64,000 bases of DNA from Syntrophales bacterium (GCA_963668175.1 OY764159.1:704001-768000); one strand, 5' to 3'. Positions 15,966 through 33,668 are shown, numbered from the stretch's first letter. Made by a program: numbers and translations. Notes: generated by a model from the sequence alone, not told the origin.

Positions 15966-16349
15966 ATGGTCTGCAAGGGACGACGCCTCTTGTTTATCAT
16001 AAGAAAAATGATGCGGCATCTGGCAAAGACGGACTTTGTCCGGCGTGCCCTGGCCGAAGAAACGGATTTGAGTATCTTAAGGCGAAAGCCGACAGCACGT
16101 ACCTACACGGGCCTTTTCCTGATTCTGTTCAGTTACGTTATAGGCTGGCCTGCCGTGGCGCTCACGGGATTCCTCGCTTTCCACACCGGGGAACCGCTGA
16201 TTGCCGTCGTCGGAGGCCCCGTCATGTACGGATTGTCCCACCTTGTTTTTCTAGCCGGCGCCTATCTCGCCGGAATTGACTATGCAAGGGTTTTCCTGTT
16301 ATGGGCTACGCGCGCAGCCTATAAGAGGGTACTCGATCATCGGGATTAA
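15966..16349 (+). CDS. Hypothetical membrane protein
   Basis: 2-3 hydrophobic helices (TGLFLILFSYVIGWPAVAL, VMYGLSHLVFLAGAYLAG); immediately upstream of the ACP. Confidence 0.7.
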   Translation: MVCKGRRLLFIIRKMMRHLAKTDFVRRALAEETDLSILRRKPTARTYTGLFLILFSYVIGWPAVALTGFLAFHTGEPLIAVVGGPVMYGLSHLVFLAGAYLAGIDYARVFLLWATRAAYKRVLDHRD

Positions 16350-16449
16350 GCACCGCCGAAATTGCAGATGCGCAAAAAGCCGAATCAGGGTGTCTATATG
16401 AATAATTCACCAGGCGGTGAATTTGATAATGAACGGAGGATAGAGGTTC

Positions 16450-16704
16450 ATGGATGAATTGGTCAAGGAACTAAAAGTAAAGATTATCGAAACATTGGGG
16501 TTGCTGGACGTCACGCCTGACGATATTGACGAATCGGGACAACTGGTTGGAGGCGATCTCGGCCTCGATTCCATCGATGTCCTGGAGTTGGTCATGATGA
16601 TCGAGAAAGATTACGGGATTAAAATCGACAACAAGGAACTCGGCGTTAAAGTTTTTGCCTCTGTAAGGGCGTTGGCCGAACATATCCAGGCCAATCGTAC
16701 TTAA
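16450..16704 (+). CDS. Acyl carrier protein 1
   Basis: 84 aa, acidic, LGLDSIDVLEL phosphopantetheine-Ser motif. Confidence 0.92.
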   Translation: MDELVKELKVKIIETLGLLDVTPDDIDESGQLVGGDLGLDSIDVLELVMMIEKDYGIKIDNKELGVKVFASVRALAEHIQANRT

Positions 16705-16741
16705 GTGTAAAAATTCTTTTCAGTCCTGCGAAGAGACAACG

Positions 16742-18214
16742 ATGACGGATACAGTTCAGGAGTCTGCCGAGATAGTCATCATCGGTTCCGGTATTGGCGG
16801 CCTTTCCGCGGGTATCATCTTGGCAAGACTCGGTTACCGGGTCGTCCTCGTCGAAAAGAACCGGCGTCCCGGCGGGTTGATGAGGGGCTACCGAAGGAGA
16901 GGATACGATTGCCCCGTAGGCATCCATTATCTGGGATCGCTGGCCGAAGGCCAGGTTATGCACCGGATGTTTCAATATCTCGGTGTCATGGACAGGATTC
17001 CTCTGGAGCGCATGGGGCGCGAAGGGATTATCGACCGTTACATCTTCCGTGATTTTATCTTCGATCTTCCCGAAGGCATTCAGGCGTTCGCAGAAAACCT
17101 GAGATCGGCCTTTCCGGGCGATCGGGACCTTATAGACGGAATAATCGGCAATATCACCGATATTGCCGCCCGTCTCGATACCCTCGAATTCCTCTACTCT
17201 CCGTCTCTTTCCATCTCATCGTTCGAGCATTTGGAATCGATGGATTCTTTTTTGACGAGGCACGGCTGCTCGCCGCGTCTCCGCGCCGTGCTGGGGGTGC
17301 CGCCTTCCTGGATAGGCCTTTCCCTCCGTGATTGCCCCGTCCTCTATCACCATATGGCTTTGGTCTCCTATCTCTTGTCCGCCTGGCGCTTAAAGAAAGA
17401 CGGTTCACAGATGGCCGATGTCCTGGTCGACCGCTTCCGGGAGTTGGGCGGACAGGTCCTGACCGGTGAAGAGGTCGAACGGATTCTCGTGAACAACTCT
17501 GTTGTCGAAGGCGTCGTCTGCAAGTCAGGGCTTCTACTCAAAACCGCATCCGTCATTGCCGCCGTCCATCCCGGAGTGGTCGTCGGGATGATTCCACCGC
17601 CTGATCTGAAGCCGTCTTATCGGCGCCGCGTCAGAGAGATGGAGAATACGCCCGGAATCTTTTCCGCAAGTTTCGTCGTCAACGACCTGTCATGCCCGGA
17701 TTATCCTTACAATATTTTCGATGTCGAGGATGACGACGAGGGCAATGTCGACACCGGAGCCTTTTATCAGCTGAGAAGGAGTCCGGAAGACGGAAAAGTC
17801 CTTCTCTCTATCCTTGTGCCGGAAACCATTGAACCCTGGCGGGCATGGGAAAATTCTCGATCGGGGCAGCGCGGCGATGCCTATCTCGAAGCCAAGGAGA
17901 AGAAGGCGGAACATTTACTAGAGACGGCAGTGACGGTCATAGGTCCCTTAAAGGATGTCGAACTCCTCGACACTTATACGCCGCTGACGATACGGGATTG
18001 GGTCGGAAGTCCCGACGGATCGGCCTATGGCGTTTCCCGCTCTACAAAACAGCTTCTTCACACGGCGACCTTAAGCCGTCCGGCCGTCCGCGGGTTGTAT
18101 TTCGCCGGGCAGAATGTCCTGCTCCCGGGCATCGTCGGTACCGTATTCGCATCGTTTCATACGGTCAAACAGATCATCGGTTATGAATGTTTTTGCAGCG
18201 AGGTCTCCTTATAG
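16742..18214 (+). CDS. FAD-dependent oxidoreductase, phytoene desaturase/retinol saturase family
   Basis: IIGSGIGGL dinucleotide motif, EKNRRPGG, TPLTIRDW...GSAYG, GLYFAGQ. Confidence 0.85.
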   Translation: MTDTVQESAEIVIIGSGIGGLSAGIILARLGYRVVLVEKNRRPGGLMRGYRRRGYDCPVGIHYLGSLAEGQVMHRMFQYLGVMDRIPLERMGREGIIDRYIFRDFIFDLPEGIQAFAENLRSAFPGDRDLIDGIIGNITDIAARLDTLEFLYSPSLSISSFEHLESMDSFLTRHGCSPRLRAVLGVPPSWIGLSLRDCPVLYHHMALVSYLLSAWRLKKDGSQMADVLVDRFRELGGQVLTGEEVERILVNNSVVEGVVCKSGLLLKTASVIAAVHPGVVVGMIPPPDLKPSYRRRVREMENTPGIFSASFVVNDLSCPDYPYNIFDVEDDDEGNVDTGAFYQLRRSPEDGKVLLSILVPETIEPWRAWENSRSGQRGDAYLEAKEKKAEHLLETAVTVIGPLKDVELLDTYTPLTIRDWVGSPDGSAYGVSRSTKQLLHTATLSRPAVRGLYFAGQNVLLPGIVGTVFASFHTVKQIIGYECFCSEVSL

Positions 18215-18273
18215 GGGCGTACAGTTCTTCTACTGCGGGATTCATGGTATATCAGGAAACCTTCCCCTTCGCT

Positions 18274-19707
18274 TCATCTCTGTTGATCAGGCTCAAATTG
18301 CCGTCTGGCGGCGGCAAAAGACGGAAGGTGACGCAGCAAATGGAAAAGACTCCACCGGTGCTGCCATAACCGTCCGGCAAAGCGTTTGCGCCACGCCCGA
18401 TCCGAATAGAACCTCTTGACGTGCGTGTTGTAGAGAAAATCCAGTTTCTCCTTCGATTCTATCCCGCGGGGTATGAAGACAAAATTGAGGCAATTCATCA
18501 ACCGCCAGTCCTCGTGAAAAAGGCCCTCTTCATGCAGGGCTGTCCAGATGGGCGCTCCCGGAAAGGGCGTAAACTTCGACATGTTCATGTCGTCGAGCCC
18601 AAGCGACAGGGTAAAGTCGCTCGTCTTCCGGATCGACTCTTCCGTTTCGCCGGGGAGGCCCATCATGAAGAGTCCCTTGGCCCGGAGCCCGGAAGCCTTG
18701 ATCCTTGCGACGGTGTCCTCGACCTCGGCCGTCGTGACGCCCGCCTTATGGCGTTCAAGCATGGCGGGATCGGCCGATTCGATACCGATGGATACCATGA
18801 GGCAGCCGGCTTCTTTGAGCATCTTCAGCAATGCGTCATCGGCATGCCCCACCCGGACCGCACAGTTGAACTGAACGCCCAGCGGCCTTGCCGTCAGCAG
18901 GCGGCACAATTCGGCGATCCGCGGCCTGTTTAACGTGAAGAGATCGTCATAGATATTGATATGCCGGACTCCGAACCCGGTTCGGAGATGACGCATATGT
19001 TCATAGATATAACCGGCGGAATTGAAACGATGGGAGCGTTTGAAGACGGAGCGGTCGCAATACGAGCATTGATAAGGGCAGCCGCGGCTGGTCGTCATGG
19101 TAGCCCCGGGAAAATGGATGAAACTGAAAAGGGGGAGGTTGTATCCTCCGGGAAACCCTTTCAGGGAGGCATAATCGGGGAAAGGAAGCCGATCCATGTC
19201 CGGCAGCGGCTGTCGGGGTGGGTTCGTGACGATTTCGTCGCCGCGTCGCCAGATCAGACCGTCGATGTCGGCTTCTTCCCGGCCGGACGCCAGTTCGGAG
19301 AGAGTCGCTTCTCCTTCTCCGAGGCAGAGATAGTCGATTTTTTCGTACTTTTCGAGCAGCGATGCGCCCAATGCGGAGACGTGCACGCCGCCGAAGACGA
19401 CCTTGATTTCGGGACGGGCCTTCTTAATCATCGACGCCATGTCGCAACCGTCGAGAAAACTTGAAGTCGTCGTGGAGAATCCGATCATATCCGGTCTAAC
19501 GCGGAGAGCGGCCTTCACATTGGCCTCGATACCCTCGGGGGCAAAAGGGCCCAGGCAGTCGTGGACAAACACCTCGTGGCCGCCCTGCTTAAGATAGGCG
19601 GCGATGGATAGCAGTCCGAGGGGGGCCATCCGATTTGCCGTTGCCGCTATGTCCTTCCTGCCGGGCATCCAGTTGTACCCGGCCGGATGAATGAGCATGA
19701 CCCGCAT
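18274..19707 (-). CDS. B12-binding radical SAM protein
   Basis: N-terminal cobalamin domain (PLGLLSIAAYL, FGGVH, GEGE) plus TSRGCPYQCSYC. Confidence 0.9.
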   Translation of the reverse strand: MRVMLIHPAGYNWMPGRKDIAATANRMAPLGLLSIAAYLKQGGHEVFVHDCLGPFAPEGIEANVKAALRVRPDMIGFSTTTSSFLDGCDMASMIKKARPEIKVVFGGVHVSALGASLLEKYEKIDYLCLGEGEATLSELASGREEADIDGLIWRRGDEIVTNPPRQPLPDMDRLPFPDYASLKGFPGGYNLPLFSFIHFPGATMTTSRGCPYQCSYCDRSVFKRSHRFNSAGYIYEHMRHLRTGFGVRHINIYDDLFTLNRPRIAELCRLLTARPLGVQFNCAVRVGHADDALLKMLKEAGCLMVSIGIESADPAMLERHKAGVTTAEVEDTVARIKASGLRAKGLFMMGLPGETEESIRKTSDFTLSLGLDDMNMSKFTPFPGAPIWTALHEEGLFHEDWRLMNCLNFVFIPRGIESKEKLDFLYNTHVKRFYSDRAWRKRFAGRLWQHRWSLFHLLRHLPSFAAARRQFEPDQQR

Positions 19708-19829
19708 AGTCCGTTTGCGAGGCCTCCAAATTTATTTGCCAACTTTCGATTCATTAGCTATAGAATGACGTATAACATTTTCGATGCCATATCAATGGTT
19801 GTATTGATCCCCGGAGGCTAAGGGAATTC

Positions 19830-21182
19830 TTGAGAGTACTGCTGATATCGCCCAACATATTGACCGCACCCTATCCCGTCTACCCCATCGGGCTGGATTA
19901 CGTGGCCGGCGCCCTTGAGGGCCGTCATGATATAAGGATTCTCGATCTTAATCGGGAATCGGGTCCCGATGTGCTTCAACGTGCCATCGATGGTTTCAGA
20001 CCCGACATCATCGGTTTCTCCATCAGGAATGTGGATAACACCGACGCCTCCAATTCGCAGAGCTTCATCGCCGGTTATAAAAGCGTGGTCGATGGGATCC
20101 GGAAATACAGTAACGCCCCCCTGGTTCTGGGCGGCAGCGGATTCACGATCTTCCCGGAAGCGCTTATGAATGCGCTGAATGCCGATTACGGCATCCAGGG
20201 CGACGGCGAATCGATGGTATGTCTTGCGGATGCCCTGGAGAATCACGGCGACCCCACTGCAATTCCCGGTGTGATGGTAAAGGGCTTTCATGCCTCGCGT
20301 CCGCCCGATCTCCCGGATAGCACTTTCCGTCGGCGTTTCAATCGGGATGACGGTCATGTCGAATATTACCTCAAGCGCGGCGGCATGTTGAACATTCAGA
20401 CAAAGCGGGGCTGTCCTTTCCGTTGCGTCTATTGTACGTATCCTCACATAGACGGTGGCCGCCTGCGGTTGACCGATCCCGACGGCGTCGCCGAAACGGC
20501 GATCGCTCTTCAAAACGCCGGCGCCAAATACCTCTTCATCACCGATTCGACGTTCAACTGCAGTGTCTCCCACAGTCTTGCAGTTGCCAAGGCCTTCATC
20601 CGGGCCGGCCTTTCCATTCCATGGGGGGCCTTTTTTGCCCCTCTCGATGTGCCCCACGACTATTACCGGATCATGGCGGATGCCGGACTGGCCCATGTCG
20701 AATTCGGCACGGAGTCCCTGACCGACGCGGTTCTTGCCGCCTACGGCAAGCCGTTCCGGAAGGCGGACGTCTTCCGGGCCCATCGTATGGCCCTCGACGC
20801 CGGGGTCCATGTCGCCCACTATCTTATGCCCGGCGGGCCCGGGGAGGACGAAGCAACGCTTTCCGAAACCCTTTCTGTGGCCGACAAGCTGGAAAAGACC
20901 GTGCTCTTTTTCTTCTGCGGCGTTCGTATTTATCCCCATACCGCCCTGTATAACCTTGCCTTGCGGGAAGGCCAGATATCGCCCGGGCAGGATTTGCTGA
21001 CGCCCGTCTTTTATCAATCGGGCAAGCTGACAAGCGATGCGATCAAGGAAGAATTGACCGCACATGCGGATGGACGCTCCCATTGGCTGATCGGTTCCGG
21101 GGGGGATAAAACGGCGAAAGTGGTCTCCCGGCTGTATGCCCGCGGACACCATGGCCCCTTATGGGAGCTTCTGACGCCATGA
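19830..21182 (+). CDS. Lipid-biosynthesis-type B12-binding radical SAM protein
   Basis: PYPVYPIGLDYV, SIRNVDNTD, LGGSGF, QTKRGCPFRCVYCTYP, GVRIYPHT; resembles the family (TIGR04072-like) found in ladderane-candidate clusters. Confidence 0.85.
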   Translation: MRVLLISPNILTAPYPVYPIGLDYVAGALEGRHDIRILDLNRESGPDVLQRAIDGFRPDIIGFSIRNVDNTDASNSQSFIAGYKSVVDGIRKYSNAPLVLGGSGFTIFPEALMNALNADYGIQGDGESMVCLADALENHGDPTAIPGVMVKGFHASRPPDLPDSTFRRRFNRDDGHVEYYLKRGGMLNIQTKRGCPFRCVYCTYPHIDGGRLRLTDPDGVAETAIALQNAGAKYLFITDSTFNCSVSHSLAVAKAFIRAGLSIPWGAFFAPLDVPHDYYRIMADAGLAHVEFGTESLTDAVLAAYGKPFRKADVFRAHRMALDAGVHVAHYLMPGGPGEDEATLSETLSVADKLEKTVLFFFCGVRIYPHTALYNLALREGQISPGQDLLTPVFYQSGKLTSDAIKEELTAHADGRSHWLIGSGGDKTAKVVSRLYARGHHGPLWELLTP

Positions 21183-22654
21183 CGAAGACCGGAGCGACCA
21201 TCTGTCCCATCTCTCCCGGCGACCTGACCGGACTGGCGGCGATTAAATTGTCCATCATCCTGGCTTTTTTTCAACCCACCCTTTCCGCCGTTCCTCTCGT
21301 CGCTTACCTCTTCGCATGCGCCGCTTTGTCCCTGATTCCGACGTCGCGTTTTTTCCTTCCGGTGATCAGCCGTGGACGGACCGGAAAAGGGATCGTCGCC
21401 CTCACCTTCGACGATGGGCCCGATCCGGCCACGACGGAGAAATTGCTTGGCCTCTTGTCCCGTCATAACGTGAAGGCGACTTTTTTCGTGCCGGGCCGGC
21501 GGGCGTCGCAGCATCCCGAACTGGTCAGGAAAATACTCTCCGAAGGACACGACATCGGTAACCATTCCTGCAGCCACGATCCCTTCCTGATGCTGCGGAG
21601 CAAAGCGGTCATCGAACGTGAAATCGCATCCGGGCAGGAGATATTGACCGCCTTTGGGGTTGTGCCCCTGGCGTTCAGGCCTCCCGTCGGCACCACGAAT
21701 CCCAGGCTTTGGCGGATACTGCTCGGTCAGGGACTCATTTGCGTCACTTTCAACCGCAGGGCGGGGGATTTCGGCAACCGGCGAACGAAGGATCTCGCCG
21801 GCAGAATATTGCGCAAGGTCCGACCGGACGACATCGTCATGCTGCATGATGTCATGCCCGGACGAGGCATGGATGTGGATCTTTGGCTTCAGGAGATAGA
21901 GAAGATACTTTCAGGCTTGAAGAGTAAAGGCCTTAAGGTTGCACGACTGGCGGAAGTCATCGGGCAGCCGGTCATGGTTCCGGCCGACGCCGGCGCGGCG
22001 GTGAACCCCGTGGCGACCTTTTACGATAACCTGGCGGACGACTACGATCACGAACAGTTCGCTTCCGGAGTTTCCCTTGCCAAGAAAAAAGAGTCGGAAG
22101 CCGTATTGTCCCGGTTGCCGGGACTGGTTTCCGCGACAGACAGGGTGCTTGAAATCGGTGCCGGCACGGGTATTTTCAGCATGCCGATCGCCGGACTGTG
22201 CCGGGAGTTGGTTGCCGTCGACATATCCGGGAGGATGCTCTCGGTGCTTGAACGAAAAGCGGCCGCGGGGCATATAAACAATATCCGGTGTATTGCCGGA
22301 AATATCACGACCATGAATATCCCCGGCACCTTCGATGCAGTCTGTGCTTTTTCCTCCCTGGAATATGTTCCCAATATGACGGGGCTTTTAAAAAGATTGA
22401 CGCCGCACTTAAAACCCGGCGGCCGTTTATATTTTACGACAGCTCATTGTTCGTTCTTTCGTTTCTTTACCCAGGTTGGAAATGCCATGAGACAGGGGGT
22501 ATGGCTCCATGCCCGGACCAGAAGCGAGGTTATACGGATGCTTGCAGCTGCCGGTATGAGACCGGTGAGGATCGAAACCCATCTTATGAAGATCTTTCCC
22601 GGGGGTGGCATGATTCTTGAAATTGAAGCAATCAAAGAAGGGGCAACCCCATAG
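21179..22654 (+). CDS. Fusion: membrane-anchored polysaccharide deacetylase (NodB/CE4) + class I SAM methyltransferase
   Basis: ALTFDDGP, GNHSCSH, FRPPVG, MLHD CE4 motifs; C-terminal VLEIGAGTG, AVDIS, LKPGG; ATGA overlap with the upstream gene. Confidence 0.85.
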   Translation: MTKTGATICPISPGDLTGLAAIKLSIILAFFQPTLSAVPLVAYLFACAALSLIPTSRFFLPVISRGRTGKGIVALTFDDGPDPATTEKLLGLLSRHNVKATFFVPGRRASQHPELVRKILSEGHDIGNHSCSHDPFLMLRSKAVIEREIASGQEILTAFGVVPLAFRPPVGTTNPRLWRILLGQGLICVTFNRRAGDFGNRRTKDLAGRILRKVRPDDIVMLHDVMPGRGMDVDLWLQEIEKILSGLKSKGLKVARLAEVIGQPVMVPADAGAAVNPVATFYDNLADDYDHEQFASGVSLAKKKESEAVLSRLPGLVSATDRVLEIGAGTGIFSMPIAGLCRELVAVDISGRMLSVLERKAAAGHINNIRCIAGNITTMNIPGTFDAVCAFSSLEYVPNMTGLLKRLTPHLKPGGRLYFTTAHCSFFRFFTQVGNAMRQGVWLHARTRSEVIRMLAAAGMRPVRIETHLMKIFPGGGMILEIEAIKEGATP

Positions 22655-22682
22655 AAACGAAAGTATAAGGTTTTATTTTCGC

Positions 22683-24206: not shown

Positions 24207-24325
24207 AATGACGGTTAAAGATATCGGTATTTCACATGAATTAAAGATGAAAGTTCATCTTGACAGTACAATGACCCCTTGATATGTGAAGACTTTATGT
24301 CTTATAATGTATTTATCGGATTATC

Positions 24326-24700
24326 ATGACGGAAGACAAATGGCATTCCCTTGAATGCAAGGCTGGGAACAGTGCCGACGGCGTTGTTGCAGACGCCCTT
24401 GTCGAACCAGGTTCTCCGTGGTTCTCCGGTCACTTCCCGGGCTGGCCCATTCTTCCGGGCGTCGCCATGTTGTCCATGGTCGGCGAGGCCGTCCGGCATG
24501 ACGAGCGGAAGCGCGGCGTGAAGGTGAGAATAAACGGCGTCAAGAGGGTGCGGTTCCGGCAGCCGATCCGTCCCGACGATCCGATATCGATATCCCTCTC
24601 CCGCACGGAGGGGGAAAGAGAGAATTCGTATAACTTCAAAATCGTCGTTCGGCAGGACATTGCCTGTTCGGGGGTTATGACGGCAAAAAGGATTGATTAA
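24326..24700 (+). CDS. FabZ/FabA-like (ApeI-type) hotdog 3-hydroxyacyl-ACP dehydratase
   Basis: WFSGHFPGWPILPGV motif, VRFRQPIRP. Confidence 0.85.
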   Translation: MTEDKWHSLECKAGNSADGVVADALVEPGSPWFSGHFPGWPILPGVAMLSMVGEAVRHDERKRGVKVRINGVKRVRFRQPIRPDDPISISLSRTEGERENSYNFKIVVRQDIACSGVMTAKRID

Positions 24701-24779
24701 GCCGAACGACGGATAATTCATAGAAGGCATATGGAATAGTGCACCATACCCTATGTGATTTCAGGAGGAAATGAGTTAA

Positions 24780-25058
24780 ATGCCTGCAAATGGTGATAAA
24801 CAATCGATCATAACGCGCGTTGCCGACATCATTATTTCGGAACTCAAGCTGGAAGATGTGACCGCGGCAACCTTTGACCCCGATCTTGATCTGGTGGATG
24901 AACTAGGCATCGACAGCATGGATTTGGCGACGGTAGCCCTGATCCTTCAGGACGAATACGGTATTGTCATCGACGAGGACGACTATCCGAAGCTTGTGAA
25001 TGTCCGTCTTATCGCCGAGTATATTATGGAAAAGTTATCCAGCTCCGATAAACAGTAA
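24780..25058 (+). CDS. Acyl carrier protein 2
   Basis: ELGIDSMDL motif, acidic 92 aa, AGGAGG RBS. Confidence 0.92.
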   Translation: MPANGDKQSIITRVADIIISELKLEDVTAATFDPDLDLVDELGIDSMDLATVALILQDEYGIVIDEDDYPKLVNVRLIAEYIMEKLSSSDKQ

Positions 25059-25072
25059 ATGGTTGTCCGCTG

Positions 25073-26161
25073 ATGCGATTGGTTCCGAAACCCATAGGTA
25101 AACACACCGACAGGACCGCCGGTCAAAAATGGCGGTTTGCGGACCTGCTCGGCGAAGAGGCTGTCCGCCTCCGCTGGGAAAAAGTCAGGCAATATTTTTT
25201 CCTCAGGGAGTCGACCTATGACATGACCAATCGCTGCAACATCCGTTGCGAGGGATGCTATTACTACGAAGGTGAAAAGCAGTTTGCCGAAGAGAATGCC
25301 GATCCCGCCGCCTGGCGCAAACTGATGCGCGAAGAAAAGGAGCGCGGGATCACCTATGTTGTCCTTGCCGGGGCGGAACCCTCCCTGGTTCCAGAGTTGT
25401 TGGCGGTATGCTTCGAGGAGATGCCGCTCGGCTCCATCGCTTCGAACGGCTTCCGCCGTATTCCCGAAACCGTCGGATATAGAATCCACGTGTCCGTCTG
25501 GGGCAACGATAAGACCAGCCGGCGCATACGCGGGGCCAAGGGACTTCTCGCCAAGCAGATTGAAAATTATCAGGCCGATCCGAGGGCCGTGTTCGTTTAT
25601 ACTTTCACGCGGGATAACATCGATGAAGTCTACGAAGTGATGGAATCCATCGTTGCCCACGGCTGTAAAATAACATTCAACATGTTTTCTTCGCCGGTGG
25701 GTTACACGGGACCGCTTCGTCACGATAAATCGTCGCTGGCGCGCACGCGTCGGGTCATGCTCGACCTCTTGTCCCGGTACCCGCGGGAGGTGTTGTTCTC
25801 ACCCTACAATGTCATGGCTCATACCCATGCTTACGGACTCCATGCCCTTTATGAATGTCCGTACCCGAGGATGAATCCTTCAACGGCGATCGGTCTCGGC
25901 CGCTCTTTCCGACAGTACCGCACCGATCTATCCTGGGACAGAAATGTGGCCTGCTGTGTCCCCGATACGGATTGCGAAGATTGCCGGCACTACGCCTCCG
26001 GAAGTGCCGTCGTTACAGCGCGTCTTTTCCGGCATGCGACCGACCCCGATAAATTCAAGGCGTGGCTCGATTACGTCGATACCTATTTGGCGGTCTGGCT
26101 CATGGGATACGAAAAGGGTGAAAACCTGTGCCGGGACATCGTGGAGCCCCCGGGGGCTTGA
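25073..26161 (+). CDS. Radical SAM protein (non-B12) with C-terminal auxiliary Cys motif
   Basis: CNIRCEGCYY, LAGAEP, ASNG; C-terminal ECP...CCVPDTDCEDC. Confidence 0.88.
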   Translation: MRLVPKPIGKHTDRTAGQKWRFADLLGEEAVRLRWEKVRQYFFLRESTYDMTNRCNIRCEGCYYYEGEKQFAEENADPAAWRKLMREEKERGITYVVLAGAEPSLVPELLAVCFEEMPLGSIASNGFRRIPETVGYRIHVSVWGNDKTSRRIRGAKGLLAKQIENYQADPRAVFVYTFTRDNIDEVYEVMESIVAHGCKITFNMFSSPVGYTGPLRHDKSSLARTRRVMLDLLSRYPREVLFSPYNVMAHTHAYGLHALYECPYPRMNPSTAIGLGRSFRQYRTDLSWDRNVACCVPDTDCEDCRHYASGSAVVTARLFRHATDPDKFKAWLDYVDTYLAVWLMGYEKGENLCRDIVEPPGA

Positions 26162-26259
26162 ATGCAGAGGGATACATCGACGACGTGTGTTTTCCGGGAA
26201 TCCGGCCGCGATCGTTTGACGAGTAAAATGCAGCAAAGGAAGAGATACGATATTATATA

Positions 26260-27258
26260 ATGAATACCGTCAGTTCGTTGCTCGACCAGGCATGGTACGA
26301 GCGCTACAAGAGAATTTCACGCCTGAATATCCGCAGTTCGATATACGATGTCACCAATCAATGCAACCTGCGTTGCAAGGGATGTTTCTTTTTTTCGTCG
26401 GATGAGCACAAAGCGGCGCCGGAAGAAACCGACCTATCCAAGTGGGAGGCCTTCGTCGACGGAGAAAAAAACCGGGGCGTCAATCTGGCCATTCTCATCG
26501 GTGGTGAGCCGACCCTTCACCTGGACCGGGTAGAGATCTTCTATAAGAGACTTCCCTCGTATTGCGCGACCAACGGTTTGATCAAGGTTCCCAGGGACCG
26601 TTTCCCGGACATGATGGTCGGTATTTCGCTATGGGGGGATGAAACCGACGAAAAGACGCTGCGGGGCAAGGATACCTTTGCCGTTTCCAGCAAGAATTAC
26701 GAGAACGACCCGTATACCTACTATCTGTATACCATTACACCGAAGCAATTGGGACGGACGGAACGTGTTATCAAGAGGATTGCCGATGCGGGCCTGAAGG
26801 TCCATATGCAGCTTTTGTCCAACGACGAAAAGGTCGACGGGTTTTTCTGGTCGCCGCAGGAACTGCAGGAGATCCGTGCGGAAATGGACGAGATGCTGGA
26901 CAAATATCCCCGGACGGTCGTGTCGTGCAAGTATTACCATGAGATCATCTGTTCCGGGAGGATGTTCGGCCGCCCCTTCGGATGGGGGGAATGCCCCTCC
27001 GTGACGGAAACGGTCGACCACAGAGACCCCAAACCCAAGCGGCTTATCCATTTCATCCGCTGGGCCTCGGACCTGAACACTATGCATCGCTGCTGCACGT
27101 CGGCCACCCGCGATTGCGGAACGTGCAAGGACGGTGCGGCCCATATGAGCTGGGTCATGGTGAATAAGCGGGAACATCTGCGGTCGACGAAAGACCTTCA
27201 GAACTGGATAGAAGTATATGAGATGTTCGCGAAACTTTACAGTTTCATCCCCTGGTAG
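26260..27258 (+). CDS. Radical SAM protein (non-B12), paralog of the preceding gene
   Basis: CNLRCKGCFF, LIGGEP, ATNG; C-terminal ECP...CCTSATRDCGTC. Confidence 0.88.
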   Translation: MNTVSSLLDQAWYERYKRISRLNIRSSIYDVTNQCNLRCKGCFFFSSDEHKAAPEETDLSKWEAFVDGEKNRGVNLAILIGGEPTLHLDRVEIFYKRLPSYCATNGLIKVPRDRFPDMMVGISLWGDETDEKTLRGKDTFAVSSKNYENDPYTYYLYTITPKQLGRTERVIKRIADAGLKVHMQLLSNDEKVDGFFWSPQELQEIRAEMDEMLDKYPRTVVSCKYYHEIICSGRMFGRPFGWGECPSVTETVDHRDPKPKRLIHFIRWASDLNTMHRCCTSATRDCGTCKDGAAHMSWVMVNKREHLRSTKDLQNWIEVYEMFAKLYSFIPW

Positions 27259-27389
27259 TTTGTCGAGCCTTCATGTATCCTATTCCCAAGCAAGATATCT
27301 AAATCTCCGATCTTTTAGGTGAAAGGCGCTCCTGTTTTAGGGGTATTCGATTCGGGACAATATCATTAGAGAGGGATCAGAAGACAGGT

Positions 27390-28640
27390 ATGACTGAAAG
27401 CCGTCCCGTCATATTGGGTTATGATGCCGCCTCCCCGCTCGGTACGGACATGAAGACCCAGTGGGAAAGGGCGACGGAAGGCAAGAGCGGCGTCAGGCCC
27501 CTGACGCGGTTCTCTCTCCGCGATGGGTTTCCGGTCCGCGTTGCCGGCGAGGTTGACGACATCGACATCGGGCCCTATCCGTTTCTCAAGCCCCGGGAAA
27601 TGGCCCATTGGACGTCGCCGATTTTCAAATATGCGATGCTGGTTGTGCACCGGGCCCTCCGGAAGAGCGGAATCGAGATGACGCCCGACATCGCGCCGCG
27701 GGTCGCCACGACCTTCAGCACGGCCATCGGCGGGCTGGATGCCGTGATCCAGGCGGATCGCCTCATGGTCGCCGAGGGAAAGCTGCCCCACCCCTTTACC
27801 AATCCGAATTCCTGCATTAACATGGTGGGGGGGAAGGTCTCCATCCTCACCACGGCGTCCGGTCCGATCTGTTCGCCGGTTACGGCCTGCGCCACGGGCT
27901 CCTCGTCGATGATCATGGGGGCGATGTTCCTTGAACAGGGTATGGCGGATGTGGCCATATGCGGGGCCGTCGATTTCGCCCTTGTTGAACCGATTGTCGG
28001 CGGTTTTGCCACGATGAACGGCGCCTACCGGCCGAAGGAAGGGCAGCCGGAAGAACCGGCGGAATCTCTGAGCCGCCCCTTCTCCCTGAACCGCCGCGGC
28101 TTCATTGTTTCCGAGGGTGCCGGGTGCGTGGTCATTGCGACGCGGGAATTCGCCAGGTCCCACGGGCTTGAAGCGCATATCGAAATGGCGGGGTGGGCCA
28201 TGACCGCGGACGCCTGTCATTTTGTAGCGCCGAACTACGCGACGGTCAGGCGCTGTATGTCCGAGTGCATCACTCACGCCGGGATCGATCCTGCCGATAT
28301 CGACGCCGTCAATGCCCATGCGGCTTCAACGAAAGTGGGTGACAAGGTGGAGGCGGACGCCCTGCATGATGTCTTTAATGGTGCCGTGCCGCCCGTTTCG
28401 GCCAACAAATCGCTCATCGGGCATGCCATGGGGGCCTCCAGCGCCATCGAGTCCATCTTTGCCATGGAAGGTATGCTGAACGACACGATCCTGCCGACGA
28501 TCAACTACAAGCCCGATCCGGCCATTGTAATCGATTGTGTCCCGGAGGGGGCGCGGCATTCGGAGCAGGAGTATGTTTTGAAGAATGCGTTCGGTTTCGG
28601 CGGCTGCAATGCCTGCATTATATTTCACAGGATAGATTAA
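27390..28640 (+). CDS. Beta-ketoacyl-ACP synthase (FabF-like) 1
   Basis: TACATG (Cys), NAHAAST (His), KSLIGH (His), NAFGFGG. Confidence 0.92.
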   Translation: MTESRPVILGYDAASPLGTDMKTQWERATEGKSGVRPLTRFSLRDGFPVRVAGEVDDIDIGPYPFLKPREMAHWTSPIFKYAMLVVHRALRKSGIEMTPDIAPRVATTFSTAIGGLDAVIQADRLMVAEGKLPHPFTNPNSCINMVGGKVSILTTASGPICSPVTACATGSSSMIMGAMFLEQGMADVAICGAVDFALVEPIVGGFATMNGAYRPKEGQPEEPAESLSRPFSLNRRGFIVSEGAGCVVIATREFARSHGLEAHIEMAGWAMTADACHFVAPNYATVRRCMSECITHAGIDPADIDAVNAHAASTKVGDKVEADALHDVFNGAVPPVSANKSLIGHAMGASSAIESIFAMEGMLNDTILPTINYKPDPAIVIDCVPEGARHSEQEYVLKNAFGFGGCNACIIFHRID

Positions 28641-28651
28641 CGGCGGATTTC

Positions 28652-29917
28652 ATGAAAGCTCCCTTGAACAGACGTGTCTTTGTCATAGGCTACGGTGCAG
28701 CCACCCCGCTGGGCGGGACCTTCTCCCAAACCTGGGAACGGGCGGTGAAAGGTGAGGCGGGATTCAGAAAGGTTACCCGCTGCGACGTGAAAACGGTTTG
28801 CGACGTCGTCGGCGAGATTCCTGACTGGAATCCCCGGATGTTCGATTTTACGACGGCCAAAGAGGCCTATAACTGGAACGCTGCCTTTGTTCTTCTGACC
28901 ATGGGTGTCTGCAAGGAGGCTTTGAATCACGCCCGCCTCGAAATGAATGCCGAAACGGGGCCCCGCACGGCTTGCCTGATCGGGTCCGCCCTGAACGGAA
29001 CGGATGCCTTCCGGGTCGCCGTCAACAATCTGCGCGAGAAGGGGGCCCTGAAGATCAGTCCCTATCTGCTTCCCAATTTGTGCGCAAACCTTCCTTCCGG
29101 CAAGGCGGGTATCCTCCTCGGCTTTACGGGACCGATCTTCTCCCCCCAGGGTGCTTGCGCTTCGGGAAATCATGCCGTCGGCATCGGGGCCAGGATGATC
29201 AGGGACGGCGATTGCGATTTTGTCCTTGCCGGGGGCGTGGATATGGCCCTTGTTCCAGAGTTGATTCACGGCTTTGAGAACATGAACGCGACGGTCAAGA
29301 TGACGCCGAAAGACAGGGCCTATCAGGATCCGACCCAGGCTTCCAGGCCTTTCAGCATCGACCGCAAGGGGTTTGTACTGTCAGAAGGAGCGGGGGTTTT
29401 GGTTCTCGCTGCGGAAGAGATGCTGGCCGCCCACGGTCTTACCCCCAAGGCGGAGGTGCTCGGCATCGGGTGGACGTCGGACGCCTTCCATTTCACGAAT
29501 CCCAACCCCGAGACGATCGTCCGGGCCATCAAGGAAGCCGTCGACGATGCGGGTCTTGCGCCCCAGGATATCGAATACGTCAATACGCACGGGACGTCCA
29601 CGCCCAAGGGCGACCTCGTCGAAGTCCAGTGCCTCAGGAAAATATTCGGAGACTATTTGGGGAAGATGCCCATATCGTCCAACAAATCCCAGATCGGCCA
29701 TACGCTGGGCGCCGCGGCGGCCATAGAGGCCGCCCTGACGATCGAGGGCATGAATCGGGGTATTGTCCTGCCGACAATCAACCATATGCCGGACCCCCGC
29801 CTCGACGACGTCGACGTGGTTCCTAATCAGGCCCGCAGGAAACAGGTGGAGATCGCCCTGTCCAATGCGTTCGGGTTCGGTGGGACGAATTGCTGCGTCA
29901 TCTTCAAGGGGGCATGA
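28652..29917 (+). CDS. Beta-ketoacyl-ACP synthase (FabF-like) 2
   Basis: GACASG, NTHGTST, KSQIGH, NAFGFGG; ATG at 28652 just after the previous stop. Confidence 0.92.
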   Translation: MKAPLNRRVFVIGYGAATPLGGTFSQTWERAVKGEAGFRKVTRCDVKTVCDVVGEIPDWNPRMFDFTTAKEAYNWNAAFVLLTMGVCKEALNHARLEMNAETGPRTACLIGSALNGTDAFRVAVNNLREKGALKISPYLLPNLCANLPSGKAGILLGFTGPIFSPQGACASGNHAVGIGARMIRDGDCDFVLAGGVDMALVPELIHGFENMNATVKMTPKDRAYQDPTQASRPFSIDRKGFVLSEGAGVLVLAAEEMLAAHGLTPKAEVLGIGWTSDAFHFTNPNPETIVRAIKEAVDDAGLAPQDIEYVNTHGTSTPKGDLVEVQCLRKIFGDYLGKMPISSNKSQIGHTLGAAAAIEAALTIEGMNRGIVLPTINHMPDPRLDDVDVVPNQARRKQVEIALSNAFGFGGTNCCVIFKGA

Positions 29918-29918
29918 T

Positions 29919-30398
29919 ATGAAGCCAAAACCTTTCCGGCCGGAGCCCTTCTCTGCCGATGAGCGCTACGTGAGGGACACGACGACGGGCCTGACCTGGC
30001 ACCGCTGCCGCAACCGCACGCTCTATGCCGATACGGACCGATCCGCCGTCGTCTACCACGCCAATTATCTGCGCTACTTCGAGCTGGGCCGGGCGACGCT
30101 GATGCGGGATGCGGCCTATCCGTACCGTGAAGTCGAGGACGACGGCTATGTGTACCCGATTATCGAAACGGGCATTACCTTTTACCAGCCGCTATATTAC
30201 GACGACCCCATGTGGGTCCATACCAGGCCGGCCGAGTTGGAGAGGGTACGCCTTAAATTCGAATACGCCGTCACCCACGCGGACACCCAGGTCCTTATCT
30301 GCAAAGGGTTCACCCGGCACTGCGCCCTCAACAAGTCGGGGAGGCCCGTGTCCGTAGATCCCAAGACCGTTCAGCTCTGGAAAAATTTTCCTGCATGA
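29919..30398 (+). CDS. Acyl-CoA/acyl-ACP thioesterase (4HBT/YbgC hotdog family)
   Basis: YADTDRSAVVYHANYLRYFELGR motif. Confidence 0.88.
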   Translation: MKPKPFRPEPFSADERYVRDTTTGLTWHRCRNRTLYADTDRSAVVYHANYLRYFELGRATLMRDAAYPYREVEDDGYVYPIIETGITFYQPLYYDDPMWVHTRPAELERVRLKFEYAVTHADTQVLICKGFTRHCALNKSGRPVSVDPKTVQLWKNFPA

Positions 30399-31240
30399 AA
30401 GAGACGACACGTAAACCTCTCTCCATCGAGGTTCTACCCTATCTACGGGACCACCGGTCCGAAGGGAAAACGGTCCTCCCGGCGGTGGAGGCCCTGCAGC
30501 GGCTGGCGCTGTCCGTCCGGGAGCACTTCCCGGCAATCCATACGCAGGCCATGTATCGCGCCTCTTTCCCGAGGTTTCTCGTCATCGAGCCGGAAGATAG
30601 GAACATCAACGCCTATGGCGAGTTTTTGACGAACGACGGAGGTTATCTCCGTGCGGATCTCGTCACGCTCAGCGTTTCCCCGAAAATGCGGATCGGCCGG
30701 TCCAAAGTCTATGCCTCGGTCTGTTTTAAGGAAAATCCCCCCGATATCGACTTTCCTGAAAGGGATAACGCCTTCGCGGCGGGAGAAGGAGCCTTCACCT
30801 TGTCGGCGGAGCAACTGTACCGGGAACTGGTCCCACTGGGGCCGTCGTACCGCAATGCCTGTGAACCGATCCGCCTGGGACGCCTGGGCGCCACGGGGTA
30901 CCTGAAAGCGCCGGTTCTGCCTGCGCCCGTCGAGCCGCTCGGATCGCCGTTCCCGTTCGATGCCGCGATGCACTGCGCCTGTGCGTGGTCCCAAAGGTAT
31001 TATGGCGTCATCGCCTTTCCTGTCGGTTTCGAACGGCGGATCATCCGCCGCAATACCCGCCCCGGCGGAAACTACCGGTGCCGGATCGTTCCCGTATCGG
31101 AAGAGAAGGGCGTCCTGACCTTCGATATCCGGATTGACGATGAGCAGGACGATCTCTGTGAACTCATAACGGGCGTGAAGATGCAGGATGTCACCGCCGG
31201 CAGGTTGAGCCCGCCCCGGTGGGTCCGGGATAGTGCTTGA
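30395..31240 (+). CDS. Stand-alone polyketide-synthase-type dehydratase (double hotdog, PS-DH)
   Basis: YLRDHRSEGKTVLPA (HxxxGxxxxP), LGPSY, FDAAMH (DxxxH). Confidence 0.8.
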   Translation: MKETTRKPLSIEVLPYLRDHRSEGKTVLPAVEALQRLALSVREHFPAIHTQAMYRASFPRFLVIEPEDRNINAYGEFLTNDGGYLRADLVTLSVSPKMRIGRSKVYASVCFKENPPDIDFPERDNAFAAGEGAFTLSAEQLYRELVPLGPSYRNACEPIRLGRLGATGYLKAPVLPAPVEPLGSPFPFDAAMHCACAWSQRYYGVIAFPVGFERRIIRRNTRPGGNYRCRIVPVSEEKGVLTFDIRIDDEQDDLCELITGVKMQDVTAGRLSPPRWVRDSA

Positions 31241-31271
31241 CAGGACGGAAAAATTCATATTTAGGTGCATT

Positions 31272-31541
31272 ATGACACGTGAAGAGATACTTGCTGAAAT
31301 TATAAGAATATTTCACGAAGAGTTCGAAATCGACAACCCCGGTTTGGACGACAATTTACGGGAAAAATATCATTTTGACAGCATCGATGCCATTGAGTTG
31401 CTCGTGGAAATAGAGAGAATGCTGCGGTCGGAGTTGACCCAGGAAGAGAAGAAGGGGGCGATGGACATAAGGACCATCAACGACATCTGCGACTATATCG
31501 AAGCCCTTATCCGAAAAAGATCGGCTCCGGTGGGCGGTTAG
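31272..31541 (+). CDS. Acyl carrier protein 3
   Basis: YHFDSIDAIELL motif, acidic, about 89 aa. Confidence 0.85.
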   Translation: MTREEILAEIIRIFHEEFEIDNPGLDDNLREKYHFDSIDAIELLVEIERMLRSELTQEEKKGAMDIRTINDICDYIEALIRKRSAPVGG

Positions 31542-31579
31542 AGCTTCCCCTGACGGCCTGACTTGACGGGCCGGCTCCT

Positions 31580-31601
31580 TCCGGTCGGTTCGCCGACCGG
31601 A
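31580..31601 (+). other. Perfect 9-bp stem-loop after ACP3
   Basis: TCCGGTCGG-TTCG-CCGACCGGA with no U tract. Confidence 0.5.
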
Positions 31602-31654
31602 CGTCATGAGCGCATTCTTCAGTTTGACGAAATATTAAGGATAACCTGGAATAT

Positions 31655-32890
31655 ATGGCAAGAAGAGTCGTTATTACGGCCGGTGCGGCCATTACGCCCA
31701 TCGGTCACGGCAAGCAGGAGATCATCGCGAGTCTCTTAAACGGCGTCTCCGGCGTCAAGAGTCTCCGTGAAGACGGGGTCCTGACAGGTTACATCCATTC
31801 GAAGGTCTTCGGAACCGTCGATTATCCGATCGCCTACGATTTTAAGAGGCTGTACCGCAAGACCATGGGGCCCGTCGCCTTTTATGCGTGCCAGGTGGCC
31901 AAGGAAGTCCTGGAACAGGCAGGTCTGGACAGCCAATTTATCACGTCGGGCCGTTTGGGGGTTGCGTTCGGCTCGACACACGGCAGCCCGACCGTCCAGA
32001 GGGACATCTACCGGACTTTCTTCAGTGGCTCCCGTTCGGATTACGCCGCCATCGGGGCCGTCGATTACCTGAAGTCGATGGTCCATACGACGGCGGTCAA
32101 CATTACGAAGATGTTCGGCATCACGGGACGCGTTATTTCCTCGTCGACGGCCTGCACGACGAGCAGCCAGTCGATAGGCTACGGCTACGAAGCGATCAAG
32201 TACGGCATGCAGGATGCGATGATCTGCGGTGGCGCCGATGAATACGACACGACCACCGTGGCTGTGTTCGACAATCTCCTGGCCTGTTCCACCGCATTCA
32301 ACGAAACGCCGCACCTGACACCGAGACCGTTCGACGTCCATCGCGACGGACTGGTCGTCGGGGAAGGGGCCGGGGCGGTCCTCCTTGAAGAGTATGAAAT
32401 GGCGAAGGCACGGGGAGCCGACATCCTGGGCGAAGTCATAGGTTTTGCCTGCAACAACAATGGCGGCGATCTGATTCTTCCCAACCTGAACGGTATCATC
32501 CAGACCATCCGGGTAGGACTGCAGGACGCGGCCATTGCAGCCGACGATGTGGATGTCGTGAGCGCCCACGCGACGGCCACCAAGATGGGCGACGTGATCG
32601 AGGCCCAGGCCATTCACGCGGTATACGGAGACAAACCCCGCGTCGCCGCGTTGAAGAGCTATATGGGGCATACCATGGGATCTTGCGGCGCCATCGAGAC
32701 GATCATCACCCTGTATATGATGGAAAAGGGTTTCATTCCCCCGACCCTGAATCTGGAGGATGTGGACGAAAGGTGTGCCATGATCCGTCATGTCAGGAAG
32801 CTTCAGGAAGACGACGTCCGCGTGGCGGTTATCCAGAATTTCGCCTTCGGCGGGGTGAATACCTGTCTTGTCATCAAAAAATTCTCATAG
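31655..32890 (+). CDS. Beta-ketoacyl-ACP synthase 3 (FabB/FabF family)
   Basis: STACTTSS, SAHATAT, KSYMGH, NFAFGG. Confidence 0.92.
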   Translation: MARRVVITAGAAITPIGHGKQEIIASLLNGVSGVKSLREDGVLTGYIHSKVFGTVDYPIAYDFKRLYRKTMGPVAFYACQVAKEVLEQAGLDSQFITSGRLGVAFGSTHGSPTVQRDIYRTFFSGSRSDYAAIGAVDYLKSMVHTTAVNITKMFGITGRVISSSTACTTSSQSIGYGYEAIKYGMQDAMICGGADEYDTTTVAVFDNLLACSTAFNETPHLTPRPFDVHRDGLVVGEGAGAVLLEEYEMAKARGADILGEVIGFACNNNGGDLILPNLNGIIQTIRVGLQDAAIAADDVDVVSAHATATKMGDVIEAQAIHAVYGDKPRVAALKSYMGHTMGSCGAIETIITLYMMEKGFIPPTLNLEDVDERCAMIRHVRKLQEDDVRVAVIQNFAFGGVNTCLVIKKFS

Positions 32891-32897
32891 ATAGGCC

Positions 32898-33668
32898 ATG
32901 CCGTCCTTACTCAGCATCATCAAACGCCCTATCGATGCCGGAGTGACGCTCCTTCTCTGGAGCTATTACATCCTCGGTTACCTCATCCTGTTTTTCCCTT
33001 TTTATGCCGTCGCCTACTTTGCCGCCCCGGACCGGGAAGCGGCTTTTCAGCGGTTGAATCACCGATTCTACCGAAGTTTCTTCGGCCTTCTGCAATGTAT
33101 TGCCCCGGGGCTGACGATCAGGGCCGACGACCGCATCGGCAATCTCAGGTCATGCGTTGTCGTCTGCAACCATCTTTCCTACCTGGACCCGATCCTGCTC
33201 ATCTCCCTGATCGAAAGACAGAAAACCGTCGTCAAGAGTCTCTTTTTCCGCGTACCCGTCTTCGGTTGGATACTTAAGGAATCCGGGTATATCCCGTCGA
33301 TGATGGACAGGGACTCCTCGTCCCTGATGATGGAACGCGTGGGCGGGATGAGGGACTATCTGGCTGCAGGGGGGAATCTCTTCATCTTTCCGGAGGGACA
33401 CCGGAGCAGGGACGGCAACCCCGGACCTCTGAACAAAGGGGCCTTTATGATCGCCAAACGGTGCCGCGCCCCCGTCGTCATTTTGTCCGTCAAGAATACC
33501 GACCGGCTGTTCACGCCGGGCAAATTCCTCTTCAATACCTGCGTTTCCAATACCATCGAAGTCGAACTGATCGGCCGGATCGATCCGGATGACGACCAGC
33601 ATTATTCCCTGGCCGGCATGCTGGGCCGGGTCCGTTTTTTGTTTGCTAATCGGCAGCGATTAACGTAG
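32898..33668 (+). CDS. Lysophospholipid acyltransferase (PlsC family)
   Basis: NHLSYLD (HxxxxD), FPEGHRS, N-terminal transmembrane helix. Confidence 0.9.
   Translation: MPSLLSIIKRPIDAGVTLLLWSYYILGYLILFFPFYAVAYFAAPDREAAFQRLNHRFYRSFFGLLQCIAPGLTIRADDRIGNLRSCVVVCNHLSYLDPILLISLIERQKTVVKSLFFRVPVFGWILKESGYIPSMMDRDSSSLMMERVGGMRDYLAAGGNLFIFPEGHRSRDGNPGPLNKGAFMIAKRCRAPVVILSVKNTDRLFTPGKFLFNTCVSNTIEVELIGRIDPDDDQHYSLAGMLGRVRFLFANRQRLT

Follow-up and report, generated by a model that had tools for sequence, protein, structure and literature searches.

The stretch of DNA analyzed here (64,000 nucleotides from a Syntrophales bacterium, GCA_963668175.1 OY764159.1:704001-768000; hereafter, the window) holds, between positions 15,966 and 33,668, a 17.7 kb cluster of 18 intact genes whose products belong to fatty acid and polyketide synthase (PKS) families and to the radical S-adenosylmethionine (SAM) enzymes. 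At its center is a core in which two paralogous radical SAM proteins without B12 domains, rS1 and rS2, lie between a dedicated acyl carrier protein (ACP), ACP2, and two ketosynthases (KSs), KS_a and KS_b. Family profile searches agreed, gene by gene and position by position, with the original prediction, which had listed three ACPs, three intact KSs, two dehydratases, a thioesterase, a PlsC acyltransferase, a flavin adenine dinucleotide (FAD) enzyme, a deacetylase-methyltransferase, and five radical SAM enzymes. The cluster has a GC content of 52-60%, similar to that of the remaining window, and its host genome (G000) is a single contig (C1) of 4.57 Mb with nine strong KS matches genome-wide. 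Because one B12 radical SAM gene (18274-19707) lies on the minus strand, with the other listed genes on the plus strand, the 17.7 kb stretch is not one operon.

For comparison, related loci were taken as the best 80 of 556 confirmed rS2-matching stretches in a species-genome collection; these come from Syntrophales, Desulfobacterales, Desulfobulbales, and some Spirochaetota. The neighbor counts for each gene include only loci with enough flanking DNA, and synteny was counted by tblastn, as gene calling missed genes in some relatives (e.g., L035-L038). We further sampled 401 genomes of the phylum and 61 near relatives, of which 32 and 25, respectively, had rS2 matches. The term core-positive denotes the 31 phylum genomes with close orthologues and two or more matches (G094, with one distant rS homologue and no lipid genes, was dropped); pooling both samples gave 53 core-positive genomes, or 52 when G000 is left out. 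Many of the sampled genomes are fragmented and related, so that misses are not absences and the counts are not independent. The features of the cluster are as follows.

16011..16349, plus strand: small membrane protein of 112 amino acids, reading frame open from 15966, with two hydrophobic stretches; homologue in 37/80 related loci, no Pfam or NCBIfam match
16450..16704, plus strand: ACP1, ApeE-like; PRK09184 at 72.3 (cut-off 70), best G000 match of E. coli ApeE (47% identity)
16742..18214, plus strand: CrtI/phytoene-desaturase-like FAD oxidoreductase (desaturase or saturase), accessory; PF01593, under all CrtI/CrtD cut-offs
18274..19707, minus strand: B12-binding radical SAM A, accessory; HpnJ/BchE-like, under cut-offs
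19830..21182, plus strand: TIGR04072 lipid-biosynthesis B12 radical SAM; 393.9 bits (cut-off 360)
21179..22654, plus strand: fusion of a polysaccharide deacetylase with a class I SAM methyltransferase; PF01522 and PF13649
22683..24206, plus strand: B12-like/radical SAM/DUF4070 protein, by its Pfam domains; rare accessory
24279..24308, plus strand: sigma-70-like promoter match (11/12), the best site, in the gap ahead of the core genes; a consensus match only, such sites not being enriched in the stretch (16 against 12.1 +/- 3.4 in shuffled sequence)
24326..24700, plus strand: single-hotdog dehydratase, ApeI/FabZ-like, core; best G000 match of ApeI
24780..25058, plus strand: ACP2, the core's dedicated carrier; mean identity of 69% across 69 orthologues
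25073..26161, plus strand: rS1, non-B12 radical SAM, core; twitch-like C-terminal cysteines C262, C294, C295, C301, and C304
26260..27258, plus strand: rS2, paralogue of rS1 (25% identity), core; C245, C278, C279, C286, and C289
27390..28640, plus strand: KS_a, FabF-like, core; intact triad
28652..29917, plus strand: KS_b, FabF-like, core; intact triad, 40% identical to KS_a
29919..30398, plus strand: YbgC/FadM-type hotdog thioesterase (4HBT), core; TIGR00051 at 76.9 (cut-off 68.7)
30395..31240, plus strand: PKS-type double-hotdog dehydratase, core; PF14765, weak (E 1.4e-4)
31272..31541, plus strand: ACP3, ApeF-like; best family PRK05350, under cut-off, ApeF being the nearest Ape protein
31655..32890, plus strand: KS_c, ApeR-like ketosynthase; best G000 match of ApeR (41%, E 5e-94)
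32898..33668, plus strand: PlsC-family acyltransferase, ApeD-like; PF01553, best G000 match of ApeD

The core gene order (dehydratase, ACP2, rS1, rS2, KS_a, KS_b, thioesterase, PKS-type dehydratase) is near-invariant in the related loci. The two radical SAM genes adjoin each other in 70 of 73 loci, and rS1 is accompanied by ACP2 (65/68), the FabZ-like dehydratase (60/66), KS_a (69/72), KS_b (52/60), the thioesterase (53/60), and the PKS-type dehydratase (43/49). This co-clustering is not due to chance, and it bears out the original prediction that the radical SAM genes are syntenic with ACP and KS genes in relatives, as rS1 and rS2 travel with ACP2, KS_a, and KS_b in most loci. The enzymes of the cluster also keep their catalytic residues: Cys-His-His is retained in KS_a, KS_b, and KS_c, being invariant in KS_a (C167/H310/H345, 68/68 orthologues) and in KS_b (C169/H313/H350, 60/60 orthologues); H20 and H193 of the PKS-type dehydratase are invariant in 38/38 orthologues; and all three ACPs carry a DS motif. 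ACP1 and the TIGR04072 gene usually sit directly upstream of the core. While TIGR04072 passes in 88 of the 401 phylum genomes, the twin core occurs in 31, and the core thus marks a subset of TIGR04072 carriers. Records titled Spirochaetota or Leptospirales (L063, L065, L067, and L071) also hold the core, with rS2 identities of 79-81%, which suggests inter-phylum transfer or mis-binning. In one relative (G136; L148 9497-11029), a single protein combines the core PKS-type dehydratase with a phosphopantetheinyl transferase.

Of the five CxxxCxxC radical SAM proteins in the window, rS1 and rS2 are the two without a B12 domain, and neither has a relative elsewhere in G000 at E 1e-8. Both combine the CxxxCxxC motif with conserved C-terminal cysteines of the auxiliary-cluster kind, five per protein, which are invariant in 72/72 rS1 orthologues and in 76/76 rS2 orthologues; the latter retain 76-89% identity across orders and into Spirochaetota. 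A full SPASM domain, with two auxiliary clusters, has seven to eight C-terminal cysteines. The five invariant ones in rS1 and rS2 fall short of this number and would be enough for one auxiliary cluster. AlphaFold models of rS1 (pLDDT 93.5) and rS2 (pLDDT 94.3) gave as best folds SkfB, SuiB, and anSME for the former, and BlsE (Z 18.3, root-mean-square deviation 3.7, 259 aligned) and SkfB (Z 17.9) for the latter. The likeness to these twitch/SPASM enzymes (BlsE 7vob, SkfB 6efn, anSMEcpe 4k36, and SuiB) consists of a partial TIM barrel, the CxxxCxxC motif, and a cysteine-rich C-terminal domain, whereas rS1 and rS2 differ in (i) their identity of at most ∼22%, (ii) their own CC-x5/6-C-x2-C motif, and (iii) being paired and tied to an ACP. 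The fold searches named no close characterized relative; no NCBIfam model passes for either protein; and for rS2, a sequence search of the PDB returned weak N-terminal matches only and the Atlas only unnamed radical SAM clusters. The weak Tes match of rS2, which spans residues 29-94 only, was rejected as an indication of tetraether-type coupling. In a midpoint-rooted FastTree phylogeny of 35 sequences, rS1 and rS2 form separate clades (support 0.996 and 1.0), which points to an old duplication. Because the pair lacks B12-binding or HemN-like architecture, methylation by rS1 and rS2 is unlikely.

Distant relatives of rS2 on plasmids (16 homologues, 29-34% identity) give some indication of the substrate. 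The four that were examined are all single copy and share the CC...CxxC motif. The Burkholderia and Alteromonas homologues adjoin a PaaA/C-type diiron protein and a hotdog enzyme, the Burkholderia site being next to an adenylation-carrier-chlorinase set; the Tistrella homologue has Rieske, PaaA/C, and AurF-like proteins as neighbors, and the Methylomagnum homologue an ACP, TauD, and a nonribosomal peptide synthetase. One relative of rS2, P0135, is fused to a thioesterase. These neighbors and the fusion support a predicted action on thioester-bound substrates, and point to no particular reaction. The diiron protein and rS2-family radical SAM recur as a cassette in aerobic Proteobacteria (L136 14246-17052, L137 14180-16535, and L139 13581-18960), with the hotdog enzyme also present in two of the three.

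To place the remaining genes, we compared the 18 proteins of the aryl-polyene (ape) cluster of E. coli CFT073 with the 3,961 proteins of G000, with the ape letters assigned by gene order and product, together with PMC8253772. A nucleotide search of E. coli genomes with KS_c gave no match, and the protein comparison was used instead. For 11 of the 18 Ape proteins, the best genome-wide match in G000 is a gene of the system described here, which points to a scaffold that is, judged by homology, of the aryl-polyene-lipid (APEL) type. Counterparts were found for ApeD, E, H, I, J, K, M, O, P, Q, and R, with ApeJ represented by two genes, as a family 2 glycosyltransferase (GT2) and an LpxL-like protein match its two halves. 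Four of these best matches, and ACP3, fall inside the window. Among the KSs, ApeR finds KS_c, and ApeO a KS at C1:4464953 (33%); among the carriers, ApeE finds ACP1, and ACP3 is nearest ApeF, yet the best match of ApeF itself is the housekeeping ACP. ApeI, ApeP, the ketoreductase ApeQ, and the transporter ApeM all have system genes as best matches, and an ApeH-like AMP ligase is present in G000. To the ape set the system adds ACP2, rS1, rS2, KS_a, KS_b, a second thioesterase, the PKS-type dehydratase, B12 radical SAMs, the deacetylase, a FakA-FakB fusion, and PlsY.

The scaffold genes are dispersed over at least five loci in G000, so that the ape core genes do not share a single locus there. 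The region at C1:4.454-4.479 Mb contains two pairs of a KS with a triad-less KS, an ACP, an ABC-2 exporter, an aromatic amino acid lyase, two AMP ligases, an ApeP-like dehydratase, FabG, a LolA-like protein, and one more B12 radical SAM (4.476 Mb) that has an orthologue in 50 of the 53 core-positive genomes. The other loci hold an MMPL-methyltransferase and an LpxL-like acyltransferase (298 kb), PlsY beside a BtrH-like gene (135 kb), and the second thioesterase, a Dak2-FakA-DegV fusion, and GT2 (4.505 Mb). In relatives these parts come together: in G005 much of the 4.46 Mb set is joined to the core, and in G136 and G318 the ape core genes are contiguous, with most of the system within about 40 kb. 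The original prediction had contrasted the cluster with aryl-polyene clusters on the grounds that it lacked a glycosyltransferase, LolA, MMPL, a CoA ligase, and an ammonia lyase. Their absence from the window was confirmed; the contrast itself was not supported, since all are encoded elsewhere in G000, at four or more other loci, and are contiguous in relatives. For the same reason, an exported APEL-type glycolipid is more likely than the bulk phospholipid loaded by PlsC alone that had been proposed. The MMPL-methyltransferase (E < 1e-180) occurs in 25 of 31 core-positive genomes versus 2 of the 370 other phylum genomes. Those two, G283 and G319, carry scaffold-only clusters (L150 and L151) with the kinase fusion, GT2, LpxL-like, MMPL, and LolA-like proteins and no radical SAM core, and are natural negative controls. 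The BtrH-like/DUF4872 gene and a partner of 133-137 amino acids are present in two copies in G000 (C1:133817-135815 and 447425-448822; L049 and L051), one of which adjoins PlsY; the pair lies beside the cluster in relatives.

The gene at G000:C1:4505536 encodes Dak2, FakA-middle, and DegV domains on one polypeptide, which aligns with the conserved N-terminal nucleotide/metal motif of FakA, although its score of 88 is far below the FakA equivalog cut-off of 975. This predicted kinase thus resembles the FakA/FakB system that feeds PlsY in having both the Dak2 domain with the FakA motif and the fatty-acid-binding DegV domain, and differs in being a single polypeptide in a specialized-lipid cluster of Gram-negative anaerobes. 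It is present in 31/31 core-positive versus 2/370 other phylum genomes, and an orthologue was found in 51 of the 53 pooled core-positive genomes. In 33 of the 35 loci with both genes, the core dehydratase is followed, on the same strand, by PlsY, an enzyme that requires an acyl-phosphate; a cluster-type PlsY was found in 28 of 29 core-positive Syntrophales. PlsX was not found in G000, which has one PlsY (C1:135213), nor in any of the 29 core-positive Syntrophales, with 23 of the 55 genomes searched having it; the kinase fusion is thus the evident source of acyl-phosphate. Routine lipids of G000 would be served by a PlsB-like protein (469 bits, under the cut-off of 610).

The three B12 enzymes of the window are unequal. 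The one at 19830-21182 is the sole TIGR04072 pass among the window's five radical SAMs and is usual in related loci (45 of the 54 with enough upstream DNA), and the other two are accessory: radical SAM A has orthologues (≥55% identity) in 3/80 loci and in 6/14 Syntrophales regions, and the DUF4070 protein (≥50% identity) in 3/80 and 0/14. Thus, of the five predicted radical SAMs, the twin non-B12 pair is invariant, the TIGR04072 enzyme is usual, and two are occasional; likewise, of the three predicted B12-binding domains, two pass the Pfam cut-off of 32.1 (77.1 and 62.7 bits), and the third, with DUF4070, scores 26.5. The FAD enzyme, predicted as part of the cluster, is present, and is accessory as well, with an orthologue in 29/52 core-positive genomes, where it often adjoins KS_c. 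KS_c itself has an orthologue in 49/53. The deacetylase occurs in 42/54 loci, its methyltransferase part in 4/54.

The predicted kinship to islands of Kuenenia and Desulfotalea was upheld by the TIGR04072 pass beside ACP and KS genes, and by sequence the cluster falls within the type of TIGR04072 island described in 2009. Those type II fatty acid synthase/radical SAM islands, described from Kuenenia stuttgartiensis, Desulfotalea psychrophila, Geobacter, and Pelobacter, share with it ACPs, several FabF paralogues, a phytoene-dehydrogenase-like (PDH-like) flavoprotein, a B12 radical SAM, a deacetylase, an acyl-CoA ligase, and an MMPL-like protein; in the accessible part of their description, neither the twin non-B12 pair nor a fatty-acid kinase appears (PMC2649909). 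Anammox Cluster I (kuste3603-3608; PMC10139942; bioRxiv 10.64898/2026.05.19.726425) shares an ACP, a dehydratase, two FabF paralogues, a PDH-like enzyme, together with a B12 radical SAM, its product link being likewise unproven; the last two (kuste3607/3608) agree at the level of family. However, Cluster I pairs one active with one triad-less KS as a KS/chain-length-factor (CLF) heterodimer, whereas KS_a and KS_b, like KS_c, are intact, and the system here is defined by radical SAMs without B12 domains. The flexirubin cluster (PMC3992019) shares an aromatic amino acid lyase, a CoA ligase, a deacetylase, an acyltransferase, LolA, a glycosyltransferase, and an exporter. The LolA-like protein and FabG of G000 score to flexirubin models under cut-off, and DarA/DarB were not noted among the annotated system genes, no search having been aimed at them. 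In contrast to flexirubin, the radical SAM core, PlsY, and the kinase suggest anchoring on a glycerolipid. Neither the twin radical SAM core nor the kinase-PlsY route was described in the literature searched, most subscription papers lying outside its reach.

The genes, motifs, homologies, synteny, and co-occurrence above were observed directly, and they support the predicted lipid pathway, which would run without oxygen on ACP templates and be tailored by radical SAMs. With moderate confidence, we propose that the window carries the principal part of a gene set otherwise spread over the genome, whose product would be a glyco-glycerophospholipid of the APEL type, exported and built with three dedicated acyl arms. 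In APEL of E. coli CFT073 and Xenorhabdus doucetiae, the sn-1 chain is saturated, an sn-2 polyene is proposed from ApeF and ApeD, ApeJ puts the chromophore on N-acetylgalactosamine, and ApeM and ApeL are proposed for export (bioRxiv 10.1101/2020.12.19.423268). The genome of G000 has counterparts for the APEL steps, together with its own sn-1 route. In the second arm, KS_c and ACP3 would make a polyene, at times edited by the CrtI-like enzyme, for PlsC to load at sn-2; in the third, a chain would be made by ACP1 together with a KS/CLF pair and an AMP ligase whose genes lie elsewhere; the B12 radical SAMs would tailor this chain, and the LpxL-like acyltransferase would attach it to an amino sugar that GT2 adds and the deacetylase edits. 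The MMPL and LolA-like proteins would then move the lipid out. By analogy to APEL, these two arms and the export are probable.

The first arm is assigned more tentatively, from gene order and co-occurrence, and its routing has somewhat less than an even chance of being right. KS_a, KS_b, and the two dehydratases would extend a chain on ACP2, with the ketoreductase encoded elsewhere in the genome, and, as the core encodes a pair of dehydratases but lacks an enoyl reductase, this chain is probably unsaturated. From it rS1 and rS2 would abstract hydrogens, with the auxiliary Fe-S cluster as electron acceptor, thereby oxidizing the chain, most likely with C-C bond formation (ring closure), or else by desaturation; this C-C bond formation is the weakest step, and we put it forward as a doubtful possibility. 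The thioesterase would free the acid, the FakA-FakB fusion would convert it to an acyl-phosphate, and PlsY would load it at glycerol sn-1; it is the thioesterase in the core, the co-occurrence of the kinase, and the position of PlsY after the core that suggest a radical-modified chain at sn-1.

Several observations weigh against this pathway. On the scaffold side, MMPL is only 21% identical to ApeM, and its orthologue was not found at the threshold used in 6 of 31 core-positive genomes; ApeC (E 0.01), ApeG, ApeN, and ApeA have no match in G000, though two triad-less KS paralogues adjoin active KSs at C1:4.45-4.47 Mb; and ApeF, ApeL, and ApeB have non-system genes as best matches. The fold matches of rS1 and rS2, at 16-22% identity, give no reaction. 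The kinase fusion also occurs in the coreless clusters of G283 and G319, and is thus a scaffold member that need not take the core's product. A cluster-type PlsY was found in only 41/53 core-positive genomes, and in 0/6 of family f36, of which 5/5 genomes examined have a generic PlsY. Finally, the non-independence of kin means that the co-occurrence counts overstate the evidence.

The occurrence of the kinase fusion without the core is also what gives force to another arrangement, in which the product of the core serves as starter or head group for the arm on the sugar: the freed, radical-modified acid would be reloaded onto ACP1 by the ApeH-like ligase, which is present, in place of 4-hydroxybenzoate, and the kinase and PlsY would supply an ordinary sn-1 chain. 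The usual position of ACP1 and TIGR04072 directly upstream of the core fits this arrangement, yet PlsY, not the ligase, comes after the core in 33/35 loci, an aromatic amino acid lyase in G000 and relatives could supply the starter, and a hand-over from ACP to ACP would need neither thioesterase nor ATP; we consider it unlikely. The original prediction, that the window by itself makes a modified fatty acid that PlsC loads onto bulk membrane phospholipid, can appeal to PlsC, three ACPs, and three active KSs within the window, but is quite improbable given that the window has no ketoreductase, that in relatives the genes for export and glycosylation accompany the core and lie next to it, and that PlsC is the ApeD counterpart, a separate PlsC-family paralogue scoring higher to the family.

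Ladderanes are an unlikely product, and we regard as exceedingly improbable the wider idea of true ladderanes, or of the C31 polyunsaturated hydrocarbons that were suggested in 2009, as the output of the cluster. TIGR04072 does pass, and the ACP, CrtI-like, and B12 radical SAM genes are reminiscent of anammox Cluster I, but the G000 TIGR04072 protein, at 393 bits, stands apart from a separate group at 540-670 bits, and the CrtI-like gene was not found in 23/52 core-positive genomes. Moreover, the window KSs are all intact, and its FabZ-like dehydratase appears, by pairwise scores, closer to ApeI than to amxFabZ, the amxFabZ chains matching it at E 4e-4 to 5e-3 and other hotdog dehydratases at E 1e-7. 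According to the respective reports, ladderanes were not found in Desulfotalea psychrophila (PMC2649909), and the C31:9 of marine polyunsaturated fatty acid producers comes from Pfa and OleABCD (PMC6463001). A view of the stretch as unrelated modules that merely lie together, or as a remnant in decay, might be argued from the five or more G000 loci, the two accessory B12 radical SAMs, and the 49 radical-SAM-motif proteins in the genome; however, the intact reading frames and catalytic motifs, the near-invariant core order, and the identity that rS2 holds across orders and into Spirochaetota make this explanation very improbable.

Some neighboring features were also recorded. Directly upstream of the cluster (13866-15947, plus strand) lies a gene for a 693-residue coiled-coil protein that probably has a signal sequence and reaches the cut-off of no family; homologues (50-70%) adjoin the cluster in G002, G005, G031, and G136, and the protein may be a loosely linked cluster member. 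A sixth radical-SAM-motif protein, pyruvate formate-lyase (PFL)-activase-like by eye, is encoded outside the cluster at 57674-58540 (minus strand), and neither promoter nor terminator counts in the stretch exceed those of shuffled sequence. In one relative (G292; L140-L141), a second TIGR04072 cluster, of a high-scoring type (640 bits) also present in G154 and G427, lies at a distance of 12 kb from the twin core. Two further G000 loci were judged to be separate systems: a biotin KS cassette (C1:4430006-4436975; L011), with biotin genes and a private ACP, KS, FabG, dehydratases, and nitroreductase, and a self-contained fatty acid synthase locus (C1:4018106-4025497; L014), with FabD, acyl-CoA dehydrogenase, FabH-like, FabA-like, FabG, FabZ, KS, ACP, and acyltransferase genes.

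In summary, the system is real and conserved, and its interest centers on the ACP2-linked radical pair. It is common among syntrophs and sulfate reducers, with 556 matches in the species-genome collection, and its carriers include at least one isolate by its record, Desulforhopalus sp. IMCC35007 (L119), which opens the lipid to a direct search. From the APEL analogy and the route through the kinase and PlsY follow specific predictions of what to extract and of the position of the odd chain; they may also tell what the orphan clusters of 2009 make. In the boldest form of our proposal, which we hold to be rather unlikely as a whole, rS1 and rS2 would be a new B12-independent radical SAM class that forms C-C bonds in an ACP-bound polyene, yielding a ring-containing fatty acid; a private kinase, together with PlsY, would build this acid into an outer-membrane glycolipid of ∼8% of Desulfobacterota and some spirochaetes. 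If this is true, the pair would offer a tractable model for anaerobic fatty-acid cyclization, as well as a new biomarker.

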